From: Escherichia coli
GTDB lineage: Bacteria > Pseudomonadota > Gammaproteobacteria > Enterobacterales > Enterobacteriaceae
Assembly: GCF_048403405.1 (NCBI RefSeq)
Contig: NZ_CP183133.1
Length of the DNA: 51,502 nucleotides
Strand: one strand, 5' to 3'
Below the pieces are notes generated by a model, which made no database searches, was not told the DNA's origin, and worked only from the letters and a program-made list of their open reading frames with translations. A program made the position numbers and the translations under genes. Below, piece by piece: positions 27,143 through 34,750 of this stretch (position 1 is its first letter; each line of letters begins with the position of its first letter).

Positions 27143-27910
27143 CTACTTCACCACACACATGGGTCTGCCAGATACCGGTTCGGGATGGATTTCCGCTTCT
27201 ACGCTGAACACCGTCTTTAGAAGCTCTGGTTTCATCACTGCTTCCGGAGCACCTTGCGCCATCACGCGACCGCTTGCCAGTACCACCAGATGATCGCAAT
27301 AGCGGCTGGCCTGATTCAGATCGTGGAGTACCGTCACTACGGTTTTCCCCTGCCTTTTGAGTTCAACCATCAGGCGCATCAGTTCAACCTGATGATTGAT
27401 ATCGAGGTAGGTCGTAGGCTCATCAAGAAGAATGAGTGGGGTATCCTGTGCCAGCACCATCGCCAGAAACGCACGCTGGCGCTGGCCGCCGGAAAGCTGG
27501 GTTAACCTGCGGTCAGCCAGATTGCGCGTCCGGGTCTGACTCATTGCCACGTTGACCCGCTCGTTGTCTTCCGCGGAGAGTCGCCCCCACAACGACAGCC
27601 ACGGGCTGCGGCCGTAGGAAACCAGTTCCCGTACAGTGATCCCCTCGGGGGATAAATGGTGTTGCGGCAGTAAAGCCAGGCGGCGAGCCAGCTGGCGGGC
27701 GGAAAAACCGGCTATGGGTTTTTCATCAAGCAATATCTCGCCAGAGTCTGGTGTTAACAGGCGAGAAAAACAGTTCAACAGCGTCGATTTCCCGCAACCG
27801 TTAGGGCCGAGCAGGGCCGTGATTTTTCCGGCAGGCAGGGCGAGAGAAAGTCCATCCAGCACGGTTTGTGCGCCATAGCTGACGGTCAGATTTTCAGTAC
27901 GTAATCTCAT
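27143..27910 (-). CDS. fecE: Ferric citrate ABC transporter ATP-binding protein FecE
   Basis: 255-aa ABC ATPase (Walker A GPNGCGKST); last gene of the fec operon. Confidence 0.85.
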   Translation of the reverse strand: MRLRTENLTVSYGAQTVLDGLSLALPAGKITALLGPNGCGKSTLLNCFSRLLTPDSGEILLDEKPIAGFSARQLARRLALLPQHHLSPEGITVRELVSYGRSPWLSLWGRLSAEDNERVNVAMSQTRTRNLADRRLTQLSGGQRQRAFLAMVLAQDTPLILLDEPTTYLDINHQVELMRLMVELKRQGKTVVTVLHDLNQASRYCDHLVVLASGRVMAQGAPEAVMKPELLKTVFSVEAEIHPEPVSGRPMCVVK

Positions 27911-28867
27911 TTATCGCATTCTCACAAGCAGCCAGACAAACCACGGTGCGCCGATAATGGCGGTCAGCACGCCTGCCGGAAGCTCCAGCGGCGGATGAAT
28001 GATTCGTGCCAGCAGATCGGCAATGACCAGCAACAACGCGCCCGTCAGGGCCGAAACGGGCATCAGCCAGCGGTGACGCCCGCCGGCGATCCTGCGCACC
28101 ATGTGCGGCACGACGAGACCAATAAAACTTATCGGGCCACAGACGGCCACGCCGGTTGCTGTCATCGCGACAGCCAGCATCAGCCCCTGGAACCGGGTGC
28201 GCTGAACCGACACGCCGAGCGTGGCTGCTCGTGCATCGCCCAGCGCCAGCAGGTCGAGATCGCGACAAAAGCGCAGGCTCAGCGGCAAAAACAGAATGAG
28301 CAACGGCACGGCAATCTTCACAAAGTGCCAGTCGCGCCCCCATAAGCTACCCGTCAGCCACAGCAGGGCACTGTTTACATCCTGCGGGTGCAGGAGCATC
28401 AGGTAATCCGTCAGGCTCGCCCAGCAGGCGGAAAGCGCCACGCCGGTGAGCGCCAGCTTCATCGGCTGGTGGGTCTTTGCCAGCATCTTCAGCAAGATCA
28501 ACCCCGCCATACCGCCCGCAAAGGCCAGCAGCGGCAGCACCATCACGGATAGTGATGGCATAAGAAGCAGTGCTCCCACAGAGGCAAGGCTGGCGGCATG
28601 GTTAATGCCGAGAATATCCGGTGATGCTAGCGGGTTACGCACAATCCCCTGTACCAGCACGCCCGCCACGGCGAGGGCTGCACCGACAAACAGTGCCAGC
28701 AGCAAGCGCGGCAGTCGGTACTCCATCAATACATAATAATGCTCGCGTCCGTCCTGCCAGTCGGTCAGCAGCGCGCGCCACGGCACGGGGATCACCCCCA
28801 TATGGAGTGATAACAGCGCACAGCCTGCCAGGGCAAGGGTGATGAAAATGACCAGCGCAATTTTCAT
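27911..28867 (-). CDS. fecD: Ferric citrate ABC transporter permease FecD
   Basis: Start at MKIALVIFITLALAG, overlapping the fecC stop (ATGA); the 524-aa track ORF is an upstream extension. Confidence 0.85.
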   Translation of the reverse strand: MKIALVIFITLALAGCALLSLHMGVIPVPWRALLTDWQDGREHYYVLMEYRLPRLLLALFVGAALAVAGVLVQGIVRNPLASPDILGINHAASLASVGALLLMPSLSVMVLPLLAFAGGMAGLILLKMLAKTHQPMKLALTGVALSACWASLTDYLMLLHPQDVNSALLWLTGSLWGRDWHFVKIAVPLLILFLPLSLRFCRDLDLLALGDARAATLGVSVQRTRFQGLMLAVAMTATGVAVCGPISFIGLVVPHMVRRIAGGRHRWLMPVSALTGALLLVIADLLARIIHPPLELPAGVLTAIIGAPWFVWLLVRMR

Positions 28868-29862
28868 CCTCGCCTCCTCACCAGCCAGACAAAGCAAGGA
28901 CTGCCAATCAGCGCCAGCACTGCGCCTGCGGGCAGATCGCCGGGGAAGGCCAGCGCGCGTGCGAGTACATCTGCCATCAGCATCAGCGTGGCCCCCAGCA
29001 GCATGCTCACCGGCAGTACGTTGCGCTGATCGAAGCCTGCCCAGAAGCGCGCCAGATGTGGCACCAGCAGGCTGATAAACGCCACCGGACCTGCCACACT
29101 GACGCACGCGCCAACCAGAAGCAGCACTAACATATTGATGATCAAACGTAGTCTCGGCAGGTTCACTCCCAGCGTATGGGCGGTACTGTCGCTGACGTTG
29201 AGCAGGTTCAGTTGATTCGCCAGCAGCAACACGACAGGGACTGCAGTGACCACCACCGGCAAGAGCTGCCAGACATCCTGCCAGTGGGCGTGGGACACTC
29301 CGCCTGCCAGCCAGTAAAAGATGCCGTAAGCATGATCTTCGGCCAGCAGCAGGGTGATGCGGGTCAGGGCCATACAAAAGGCCGACAGCGCGATACCCGC
29401 GAGGATCAGTTTGTTTCTGTCCTGGGTATGACGAAACCCGCCTCCTGCGGTCATGACCAGCAGCCAGCTCACGCCGCCCCCGCATGCCGCGATGAACGAC
29501 AGGGAATAGCCTGCAACCGGCGTCGGACTCAGCGCGCTGGTAAGCGCCATAGCCAGCGCCGCGCCGCTGTTAATGCCGAGCAGTGAAGGAGAGGCCATTG
29601 GGTTGTGGGTCAGGGTTTGCAGCAGCGTGCCCGCGAGCGCCAGGCTTGCGCCGATCAGAACGGCGACCAAGCTTCGCGGCAAACGAAGGTTTTGCACCAG
29701 CGCTTCTGGTAGCGTTGGCGTGTGTCCAGGCAGCAGGGCGCGGATTGCGTCTGCTCCGGAAACAGGAATGGCCGAGTAGCAAAACAGACTCAGCCAGAAA
29801 ATAATAATAAGTACTGCAACGGGAAGCCCCCACAGCAGCACCGGGTGTTTTAGCGCGGTCAT
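28864..29862 (-). CDS. fecC: Ferric citrate ABC transporter permease FecC
   Basis: 332-aa FecCD-family permease. Confidence 0.85.
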   Translation of the reverse strand: MTALKHPVLLWGLPVAVLIIIFWLSLFCYSAIPVSGADAIRALLPGHTPTLPEALVQNLRLPRSLVAVLIGASLALAGTLLQTLTHNPMASPSLLGINSGAALAMALTSALSPTPVAGYSLSFIAACGGGVSWLLVMTAGGGFRHTQDRNKLILAGIALSAFCMALTRITLLLAEDHAYGIFYWLAGGVSHAHWQDVWQLLPVVVTAVPVVLLLANQLNLLNVSDSTAHTLGVNLPRLRLIINMLVLLLVGACVSVAGPVAFISLLVPHLARFWAGFDQRNVLPVSMLLGATLMLMADVLARALAFPGDLPAGAVLALIGSPCFVWLVRRRG

Positions 29863-30767
29863 TTCACATCGGTAAGCGGCTGATGGTGGAAGATTTTTAC
29901 CGTGTCAGCGGCAATACGCTCTGCGGCAAAAATACCGCGCATCCGCGCCCAGGCGTTACTGTCGACTGAAGCAACCTGCTGCTTCTGCGCGGCGGTTAAT
30001 ATCTGCCAGAGCGGATCTTGTTGCCAGCGTTTAACAATGCTCTCTTCGCGATAGTGGGCAACCAGCAGCCAGGCAGGATTGACCGCCAGCAGTTGCTCCA
30101 GGCCGATGGACGGCATGGACGCGCCCGCCATCGCAGCGGGAACATTCAGCCCCAGAGAAGCCAGCACGCTGCCGGTCCAGGTCTCCTGGGTATGCAGGTT
30201 GAATAGCTGTTCGCGTGATGTGCCAAAGGCCACGCGTGTCCCTGTGGGAAGCTGGCTGGCCCACTGCGCCATCTTCTCTTTATGTTGTTCCAGACGCGCC
30301 TGCATCTCTCGTTTTTTACCTACCACTTCGCCGATGATAGCCGCTGAGTGCAAATTTTCAGCGTAGGTTTCGTTGCGGGACTTAAGCAGCAGTACCGGCG
30401 CGATTTGCTGCAAGGCGGTGTAAATCCCCGCATGGCGACTGCTGTCGGCAATGATCAGGTCTGGTTTCAGGGCAGCAATGGCTTCCAGGCTCGGCTGCGC
30501 GCGCGTTCCGACGGACTGCCACGGTTTCAGGTGCGCACGCACTTCGGGCATGATGCGTTTTGCATCGTTATCGTCGGCAATACCGATCGGGCTGACGTCC
30601 ACGGCGGCCAGCGCATCGGCGAACGAGAGTTCCAGCACCACAATCCGTTGTGGCGTTTTATCGAGTGTAAACGTGCCGTGTTCGTCCTGAACCGTGGCGG
30701 CAAAGGCGTGGCCGATCACCAGCAGCAGGCCTGCAAAAATAAAACGGATAAATGCCAACATAGTCAC
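29859..30767 (-). CDS. fecB: Periplasmic ferric citrate-binding protein FecB
   Basis: 302 aa with signal peptide; siderophore-type periplasmic binding fold. Confidence 0.85.
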   Translation of the reverse strand: MTMLAFIRFIFAGLLLVIGHAFAATVQDEHGTFTLDKTPQRIVVLELSFADALAAVDVSPIGIADDNDAKRIMPEVRAHLKPWQSVGTRAQPSLEAIAALKPDLIIADSSRHAGIYTALQQIAPVLLLKSRNETYAENLHSAAIIGEVVGKKREMQARLEQHKEKMAQWASQLPTGTRVAFGTSREQLFNLHTQETWTGSVLASLGLNVPAAMAGASMPSIGLEQLLAVNPAWLLVAHYREESIVKRWQQDPLWQILTAAQKQQVASVDSNAWARMRGIFAAERIAADTVKIFHHQPLTDVK

Positions 30768-34170: not shown

Positions 34171-34688
34171 AACCCATGCTCCAGACGAAACAGCAGGCAG
34201 TGCTCGACGGCTTTCGCCACGTATTTTTTCACGGAGCTGACGGAAACACCGAGTTTGTGCGCAATCTCGCTGTATGTCAGGCCATCCAGTTGCGAAAGCA
34301 GAAACGCTTCACGTGTTTTTCCGTTTAGCCCGTCCAGCATGCTGTCGACGAGTTGTAGGGTCTCGAGCTGGCTTTCGCGTTCCTCAGGTGAAGGCGCTCC
34401 CCCCTCCGGCATAAGCGCCAGCATCTCCAGATACGCTTTTTCCAGCGCGTTTCGGCGAAACAGGTCCACCATCACGCGTTTGGCGATAGTGCACAGGAAA
34501 GAGCGAGGATCGCGGATCGTCGAGAGCGTTTCGCTGCTCATTACCCGCAAAAAAGTGTCCTGGGCAATGTCATCTGCATCAAAGGCAGACTGGAGTTTGC
34601 GCGTCAGCCAACTTTTCAACCAGCCGTGATGGGTGCCATAAAGCGACTCGAACGTTAAGGAAGCTGTGGTAGTGGCACGGTCAGACAT
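34167..34688 (-). CDS. fecI: ECF sigma factor FecI
   Basis: 173 aa, [28 protein letters not shown]…. Confidence 0.9.
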
Positions 34689-34731
34689 GCGGAGTGCATC
34701 AAAAGTTAATTATCACGTAGCCATATTAATA

Positions 34732-34750
34732 TGAGAATGGTTATCATTAC
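34732..34750 (-). promoter_or_regulatory. Fur-box-like site upstream of fecI
   Basis: TGAGAATGGTTATCATTAC resembles the GATAATGATAATCATTATC consensus. Confidence 0.45.

Follow-up and report, generated by a model that had tools for sequence, protein, structure and literature searches.

A complete ferric-dicitrate uptake operon of the K-12 type, carried as a clonal pKPN3-type allele on a 51.5-kb mosaic plasmid and bordered by a probable IS200/IS605 relic

Escherichia coli K-12 carries the ferric-dicitrate uptake operon fecIRABCDE in its KpLE2 region (NC_000913.3, 4510690-4518235), and this copy is among the closest described relatives of the operon treated here, which lies on a 51,502-nucleotide stretch of E. 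coli DNA (contig NZ_CP183133.1; this whole stretch is called the window). The two operons have the same genes in the same order, with the same lengths and overlaps, and share 97-98% nucleotide identity from fecI to mid-fecD. The K-12 copy is likewise flanked by insertion sequences (ISs), although its flanks are otherwise unrelated, and it is chromosomal rather than plasmid-borne. Plasmid-borne copies have also been described: fecIRABCDE is listed as cargo of IncF plasmids (PMC8151138), and pKPN3 is among the plasmids stated to carry fec and lac together, both being enriched in bovine Klebsiella (PMC11787494). For pEC41, an IncM plasmid of E. coli whose fec system is functional, the title of the report states that the plasmid fec contributes to E. 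coli virulence, and a passage of its text proposes that fec may provide iron uptake (PMC8187952). As described there, pEC41 resembles the present plasmid in having fecIRABCDE brought in with IS insertions, but its replicon and insertion context are different. Also among the closest relatives are the pKPN3-type IncFIB(K)/IncFII plasmids of Klebsiella, for example pKqq_SB98_2 (NZ_CP084805.1), which is 100% identical both in the 8-kb block with fec and in the 25 kb that lie to the right of this block. Plasmid-borne fec is already known, and this copy is an ordinary one. We read the locus as encoding a ferric-dicitrate uptake system that is complete and of E. coli K-12 type, present as a clonal pKPN3-type allele on a 51.5-kb mosaic, with a neighbouring palindrome that is probably an IS200/IS605 relic; to this reading as a whole we assign a probability of roughly 0.88.

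According to the map of open reading frames (ORFs) and the family assignments, the operon comprises seven co-directional genes in the order fecI-fecR-fecA-fecB-fecC-fecD-fecE on the minus strand (27143-34688). Scores are NCBIfam bit scores with their curated cut-offs, and identities are to the K-12 counterparts at the amino acid level unless stated otherwise:

34167-34688, minus strand: fecI, extracytoplasmic-function (ECF) sigma factor, 173 amino acids; FecI equivalog NF041727, 314.6 bits (cut-off 260); 97.7% identity, gap-free
33217-34170, minus strand: fecR, transmembrane sigma regulator, 317 amino acids; FecR equivalog NF007296, 545.6 bits (cut-off 385); 97.8% identity
30806-33130, minus strand: fecA, TonB-dependent ferric dicitrate receptor with N-terminal signalling domain, 774 amino acids; FecA equivalog NF041676, 1530 bits (cut-off 1100); 98.8% identity
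29859-30761, minus strand: fecB, periplasmic binding protein, 300 amino acids from the ATG used in annotated records, with the same limits in NZ_CP084805.1; NF008501, 496.8 bits (cut-off 320); 95.0% identity
28864-29862, minus strand: fecC, permease of an ATP-binding cassette (ABC) transporter, 332 amino acids; FecC equivalog NF008407, 596.4 bits (cut-off 396); 96.4% identity
27911-28867, minus strand: fecD, ABC permease, 318 amino acids; FecD equivalog NF007299, 570.5 bits (cut-off 406); 91.5% identity (88.9% in nucleotides)
27143-27910, minus strand: fecE, ABC ATPase, 255 amino acids, a diverged allele; FecE equivalog NF008409, 463 bits (cut-off 375); 79.2% identity (75.1% in nucleotides)

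All seven products match their families from end to end with scores above the cut-offs, and all seven frames are open, with neither a frameshift nor an internal stop and with the lengths of their K-12 counterparts (0 gaps). An earlier note on this DNA, made from its letters alone, had announced a complete fecIRABCDE, and these seven intact, full-length ORFs, each scoring as a Fec family member, bear it out. FecA aligns over its full length (residues 1-774) to the solved E. coli receptor 1KMO, and residues 34-133 align to the isolated signalling domain 2D1U; the N-terminal signalling extension is therefore present beside the plug and the barrel. The genes had also been described as overlapping or adjacent throughout, which is true of four junctions, with overlaps of 4 nt in fecI/fecR, fecB/fecC and fecC/fecD and direct abutment of fecD and fecE, and slightly overstated for the remaining two. 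Between fecR and fecA there is a true spacer of 86 nt, which would hold the fecA promoter, and between fecA and fecB one of 44 nt, with the putative attenuator hairpin.

The similarity to K-12 is not uniform along the operon. Identity is 96-99% over 28343-34688 and only 70-85% over 27143-28342, a region that comprises fecE and the last ~430 nt of fecD, and the breakpoint near 28343, within fecD, is sharp. Because of this sharp drop, the sequence indicates that recombination within fecD joined two fec lineages. The E. coli chromosomal loci all have the K-12 type of fecDE, which is ~78% identical to that of the window, and the window type is found in E. coli on 14 records only. In the plasmid collection the diverged type is clonal in 983 records, with fecE 100% identical in all of them and no intermediates; across the plasmid and E. 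coli collections together, the only types of fecDE encountered were this clonal allele and the ~78% identical chromosomal one.

The control sites known from K-12 have counterparts in the plasmid operon, where they are predicted as follows:

34733-34751, no strand assigned: predicted Fur box in the fecI promoter, matching the consensus GATAATGATAATCATTATC at 15 of 19 positions
33131-33216, minus strand: fecR-fecA spacer with the predicted FecI-dependent fecA promoter and Fur site, by identity to K-12
30777-30796, minus strand: GC-rich hairpin and U run between fecA and fecB, a putative attenuator, with the structure GCCCGGCUUGCCGGGCUUUU in the fold of 30750-30830

Across all 51.5 kb the predicted Fur box is the highest-scoring match to the consensus, and its sequence is that of K-12 at the corresponding position; about 98% of the 230 nt upstream of fecI agree with K-12 as well. 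In K-12, Fur binding has been placed at the -10 region of fecI (PMC9249621). The fecA promoter region (33100-33260) agrees with K-12, whose fecA promoter and Fur footprint have been described (PMC9249621), at 157 of 161 nt, the substitutions being at 33223, 33215, 33203 and 33137. These comparisons support, as predicted sites, both of the regulatory elements that had been suspected from the sequence, namely a Fur-box-like site before fecI and an ECF-promoter-like sequence before fecA. The K-12 operon also shares the attenuator hairpin, which there lowers transcription of fecBCDE from its position downstream of fecA (PMC9249621).

Because of this near-identity, the working mechanism can be carried over from K-12 and is most likely the same. 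Under iron limitation, Fur would leave the fecI promoter and sigma-70 RNA polymerase would transcribe fecIR. Ferric dicitrate bound to FecA in the outer membrane would then cause the N-terminal domain of the receptor to signal to FecR, and the ECF sigma factor FecI would be activated. RNA polymerase with FecI would transcribe fecABCDE from the fecA promoter, which Fur is expected to repress as well, and the hairpin after fecA would attenuate read-through into fecBCDE. FecB, FecC, FecD and FecE together would form a periplasmic-binding-protein-dependent ABC importer.

The operon is a clonal allele of the pKPN3-type IncFIB(K)/IncFII plasmids of Klebsiella. Of the plasmid records, 988 contain its 8-kb block at an identity of at least 99% and 995 cover at least 80% of it, and the carriers are overwhelmingly Klebsiella IncFIB/IncFII plasmids of 125-250 kb. 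In these large plasmids lacIZY, an alcohol dehydrogenase gene and IS4321 are found on one side of fec, and an amidase/ABC-transporter cluster on the other. The pKPN3-type plasmids share with the present one the scraps of IS66, IS21 and IS903, the palindrome and the IS4321 pair. They differ from it in being large (125-250 kb) and conjugative and in having lacIZY beside fec, whereas lac is absent here, and in the present plasmid the segment is cut by IS26 in the alcohol-dehydrogenase and histidine-kinase genes and joined to a 21-kb backbone of putative IncR type.

Positions 26503-51502 of the window are 100% collinear with pKqq_SB98_2, and window bases 1-812 continue the window's last base exactly as in that plasmid (812/812). 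Because of this contiguity the window closes as a circle of 51,502 bp, and the description of the carrier as a small plasmid is upheld. The pKPN3-type piece measures 28.8 kb (23495-51502 plus 1-812) and is delimited by two IS26 copies, each the exact reverse complement of the other:

813-1632, minus strand: IS26, 820 bp with 14-bp terminal repeats, cutting a histidine-kinase gene
22675-23494, plus strand: IS26, cutting an alcohol-dehydrogenase gene, whose product starts at profile position 22

The genes truncated in this way are a hybrid histidine kinase (50160-51502 plus 1-812) and the alcohol dehydrogenase (23516-24472). The 8-bp flanks of the two copies, ATTTAAGC/ACGCACGT and AATTTCCG/AGTACATC, show no match, whether compared directly or as reverse complements, and no target duplication; a signature of inversion was looked for at the IS26 pair and not found. 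We conclude that fec entered this plasmid as part of the 28.8 kb of pKPN3-type DNA that the IS26 copies delimit.

On the other side of the IS26 copies, the backbone (1633-22674) encodes a RepE-like initiator (17650-18516), ParA/ParB, UmuC, a tyrosine recombinase and a group II intron reverse transcriptase. The genes cited for IncR-type backbones are rep, parAB, umuCD, a recombinase and vapBC, and plasmids for which IncR is one of several typed replicons match the backbone at 99.9% identity. Could the window be a slice of a larger replicon instead of a complete small plasmid? In favour of a slice, no identical 51.5-kb record was seen in the plasmid collection. We nevertheless regard this as unlikely, since contiguity of the window's end with its first 812 bases in an independent reference plasmid is not expected of an arbitrary slice, and since the window has a single replication and partition set and no transfer genes were found in it.

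The DNA directly beside fec is old, unmatched mobile-element debris. Similarity to the E. coli chromosomal fec loci extends from the stop codon of fecE to the inside of the palindrome (34891-34930), and around these limits the following remnants were identified:

26450-27086, minus strand: IS66-family remnant, with tnpB (26751-27044) and the 5' part of tnpC, tnpA missing; 83-88% identical to E. coli IS66-family elements; NF033819 (IS66_TnpB)
34939-35147, no strand assigned: scraps resembling traG (34939-35008) and a Tn3-family tnpA (35103-35147), partial matches to traG N-terminal-domain and Tn3-family transposase genes of other plasmids
35148-35176, plus strand: terminal fragment of IS903B, 29 nt, matching exactly the termini of the complete IS903B copies in the window (at 5301 and 7376)
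35164-35649, minus strand: C-terminal remnant of IS21 istA; NF033546 (transpos_IS21) positions 231-294 of 294, E = 8.7e-16; 87% nucleotide identity to IS21 istA

The IS66 remnant ends 57 nt from the fecE stop codon, its tnpB start lies ~98 bp from that codon, and it is annotated in NZ_CP151001.1 as tnpB plus a pseudogene of tnpC; the istA remnant is annotated as a pseudogene with a Mu-transposase domain. An apparent IS66 next to fecE in E. coli chromosomes arose from joined BLAST pieces and was rejected, as the annotation puts that IS66 ~6 kb off on the opposite side of fec.

These matches of sequence and profile confirm the IS debris that the earlier note had seen on the two flanks (IS66 beside fecE, IS903/IS21 on the other side), while the acquisition as an IS-bounded block that it derived from them is not supported at that level, the remnants being of different families, all truncated, and fixed in ~1000 Klebsiella plasmids. 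The possibility it raises is that fec is a composite transposon of its own, with the IS66 remnant as one boundary and the IS903/IS21 remnants plus the palindrome as the other, and that it entered the plasmid as this unit. Mobile-element fragments do lie on both sides, and a discrete module does exist, whose homology with E. coli chromosomal fec reaches no further than the stop codon of fecE at one end and the interior of the palindrome at the other. However, because the adjacent remnants are truncated and unmatched in family, they cannot form a composite transposon; no intact pair of the same IS was found immediately beside fec, there is no target duplication, and the only matched pair is that of IS26 around the 28.8-kb segment. 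The comparison with chromosomal fec junctions that the note had proposed gives the limits of the module just stated, yet the synteny is that of the larger segment, which extends from 23495 through the window end to 812, with an IS26 copy at either limit; the same flanks, and ~20 kb more on each side, are collinear with large Klebsiella plasmids. We therefore consider an IS-bounded fec unit most improbable.

What, then, is the palindrome that closes the module upstream of fecI? It lies beyond a small ORF, and the two features are:

34891-34930, no strand assigned: 40-nt palindrome with hairpin, linker and TCAA on both strands; two 19-nt arms, 100% complementary, around a 2-nt centre
34825-34875, plus strand: ykiE-like small ORF of 16 codons, aligned with the K-12 ykiE region

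It had been called a perfect 40-bp palindrome; the arms are indeed fully complementary, while the 2-nt centre leaves 38 of 40 positions and the symmetry not strictly perfect. The fold of the DNA has an energy of -23.9 kcal/mol (z = -10). The neighbouring ykiE-like ORF is shortened to 16 codons by a 1-nt insertion; ykiE of K-12 has 22 codons, and its stop is the TGA inside the TTGACA of the hairpin.

The layout of the palindrome is that of the right end of IS200/IS605-family elements. In IS608 this end has a subterminal hairpin with TCAA ~10 nt 3' of its foot (PMC3201880), and the right ends of IS608 and ISDra2 have in common with the palindrome a subterminal hairpin followed by a short linker that ends in TCAA at the terminus. 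The stem of the window's palindrome ends at GGGCGGGG and is followed by AGGATGTCAA, which gives the same spacing of ~10 nt between foot and TCAA. In comparison to IS608 and ISDra2, the 5' side, the place of the guide tetranucleotide, is here a mirror of the 3' tail, making a fully symmetric 40-mer (its centre apart). Asymmetric relatives of the form (G)GAATCC - stem - TTTA - stem - GGAGGATGTCAA were found within the same loci as symmetric copies. At one locus (L013) such a relative stands directly 3' of a 398-amino-acid, full-length TnpB with the domains OrfB_IS605, Cas12f1-like_TNB and HTH_OrfB_IS605, at two others (L008, L097) directly 3' of TnpB C-terminal ends, where Pfam likewise gives OrfB_IS605 plus Cas12f1-like_TNB, and at a fourth (L019) it adjoins a weak tnpB fragment (tblastn E = 2.5e-4). 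The region 3' of tnpB is the right end of IS200/IS605 elements and encodes the guide RNA of TnpB (reRNA/omega RNA; PMC8612924).

The E. coli fec loci point in the same direction. In K-12, in E. coli B and on a plasmid of Shiga toxin-producing E. coli, the ordinary right-end form stands where the window has the palindrome; in K-12 this ordinary hairpin is cut by IS1F, and on the Shiga toxin-producing strain's plasmid (the L007 context) a TnpB C-terminal remnant lies behind the fec right end (tblastn E = 1.4e-6). The palindrome is thus best explained, on sequence grounds, as a symmetrised remnant of an IS200/IS605-family (TnpB) right end and not as an anonymous boundary mark. Because the E. coli loci hold the ordinary form at the homologous position, the ancestral fec module appears to have abutted such a right end, and the two would already have been neighbours before the E. 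coli and Klebsiella-plasmid modules diverged from their common ancestor. In the lineage of the Klebsiella plasmids this end then probably became symmetric, and the remainder of the element disappeared.

Symmetric copies are widespread. In the form TTGACATCCTCC-N16-GGAGGATGTCAA they occur in 6 viral contigs and at 83 loci of the genome collection, and they span Enterobacterales, Chlamydiae, Cyanobacteria, Actinobacteria, Desulfovibrio and haloarchaea. Some genomes have several: Desulfovibrio sp. Dsv1 on 5 contigs, a cyanobacterial metagenome-assembled genome 4 and a Chlamydia-labelled one 3. The pattern scans fixed the outer 12 nt of each arm, and the outer 12 pairs are hence uninformative for covariation. 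The six inner pairs covary over 91 copies, with 95 double-sided changes against 26 ± 4.4 in shuffled data (0 of 500 shuffles reach the observed value), and the signal collapses in slid controls. A similarity search also found a related copy in an unrelated place, on a P1-like plasmid (L008, CP054337.1, 4001-4040), where the symmetric hairpin stands at the point at which similarity to phage P1 ends (P1 31240-31260). An empty-site test with phage P1 was discarded, as the divergence just before the hairpin is a replacement with loss of lydC rather than a clean insertion.

Several other identities for the copies were tried and rejected. A miniature DDE-type transposon does not fit, as the flanks of the 91 copies carry no information and there is no target duplication. 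Neither does a constant gene partner: when 150 ORFs beside the copies were compared by all-against-all BLAST and by Pfam, no family was enriched, and what turned up was limited to scattered integrases (BLAST, 7 loci; Pfam, 3 of the 150 ORFs directly adjoining a copy), GNAT/RHH pairs and Fic. Rfam returned generic hairpin matches far below the gathering scores, and a known RNA family was rejected. A search of E. coli genomes with 44 nt gave, beyond ~113 genomes, mostly partial matches at chance level, and a literature search with the arm sequences retrieved unrelated primers only.

A regulatory element of the host or plasmid, such as a bidirectional terminator, an insulator or a protein-binding site unrelated to insertion sequences, is suggested by the very stable hairpin, by the mostly intergenic position of the copies, often right after stop codons, and by the TTGACA, a -35-like hexamer, with which each arm begins. 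As a terminator, however, the hairpin has no U run on either strand, its flanking gene pairs (14 convergent, 10 divergent and 31 tandem) show no excess of convergent ones, and the copies have no strand bias relative to adjacent genes. Moreover, no neighbour family is enriched and no Rfam family reaches threshold, whereas elements that carry tnpB end in this very tail and inner hairpin, and lineage-specific inner stems are common to the symmetric and right-end copies of a given genome. A regulatory element of this kind is thus improbable, and we retain the origin from an IS200/IS605 right end.

Some observations weigh against our overall reading. The palindrome is without the guide tetranucleotide, having CCTCC, the mirror of its 3' tail, where the relatives have GGAATCC and the E. 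coli fec copies GAAATCC; no tnpA or tnpB is adjacent to it, and tblastn detected no TnpB homology in the window. Its IS origin therefore rests on the homology of its relatives. The IncR type of the backbone is inferred from gene content and from a match to multi-replicon plasmids. With respect to the operon, fecE and the 3' part of fecD are only ~75-80% identical to K-12, and the compatibility of FecD and FecE with the rest of the system is assumed from fixation in ~1000 plasmids. Finally, the fecA promoter differs from K-12 by a T-to-C change at 33203 and by a G-to-A change at 33215, in what would be the -35/Fur region if the published Fur consensus position of -36 to -17 is applied.

From the last points it could be argued that the operon is intact in sequence yet non-functional here, either through a fecA promoter weakened by the G-to-A change or through a mismatched, diverged FecD/FecE module: substitutions are present in the promoter region, and the mosaic 3' end has 75-80% identity to K-12. 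On the other hand, mutations in the -35 region of fecA are reported in Braun's review to have much smaller effects than those in the -10 region (PMC9249621), and the inferred -10 stretch TGTCCTTTTT is unchanged. The scores of FecD and FecE are still above the equivalog cut-offs, and the allele is undisrupted in ~1000 plasmids, with only occasional frameshifted copies (e.g. fecA in NZ_CP151001.1). A non-functional operon is accordingly very unlikely in our estimate, and a working K-12-type system is preferred.

How the symmetric form arises can be addressed with greater caution. Because symmetric and right-end copies share lineage-specific inner stems within one genome at five loci (L086, L096, L029, L020 and L013), the symmetric form can be linked to resident elements, which suggests that it was produced from them or moved by them. 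Hairpin-primed fill-in of the bottom strand is one conceivable origin. In the literature accessible to us, which was limited, no description of solo symmetric copies was found. Such copies have a low copy number, are intergenic, occur in Bacteria and Archaea, and often stand at junctions where related replicons diverge, such as fec here and lydA in the P1-like plasmid. We tentatively raise the possibility, which we consider more doubtful than probable, that the palindrome belongs to a class of solo symmetrised IS200/IS605 (TnpB) right ends of the form TTGACATCCTCC - covarying hairpin - GGAGGATGTCAA, made or mobilised by resident machinery.

Other mobile DNA is scattered over the window. An inverted pair of IS4321/IS5075-type elements of the IS110 family (24764-26152 and 45763-47151) shares 1389 identical bp; IS4321/IS5075 itself is presumably ~1.3 kb, somewhat shorter than the shared stretch. 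The sequence suggests that both copies contain one and the same interrupted Tn3-family-like terminal repeat, whose tips point towards the 20-kb fec/amidase segment; the large Klebsiella plasmids have the pair arranged likewise. Three IS903B-type copies are present (5301-6357, 7376-8432 and 47281-48336), together with a 5'-truncated Tn3-family transposase gene (1870-3690) and the group II intron reverse transcriptase/maturase gene (10933-12420).

Only two points go beyond routine annotation: what the palindrome is and how widely it is distributed, and the mosaic structure of fecDE. Recognizing that the plasmid-borne allele is a mosaic, with an apparently foreign fecD-3'/fecE segment, may help annotation; likewise, the palindrome at the fec boundary, as a probable IS200/IS605 relic with relatives across prokaryotes, may aid it. 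If the symmetric copies do form a class of solo right ends, resident IS200/IS605 machinery would repeatedly generate or mobilise them, and because each strand would be a right-end-like substrate, they could be hot spots of recombination and junction formation. The Fec system serves enterobacteria in the uptake of iron from citrate, and fec has been tied to fitness in milk and urine, in E. coli from bovine mastitis (PMC5885034) and through its enrichment in bovine Klebsiella (PMC11787494). A small, apparently non-conjugative plasmid of putative IncR type that took fec by IS26-mediated exchange with a large IncF plasmid would represent another route by which this system is repackaged.

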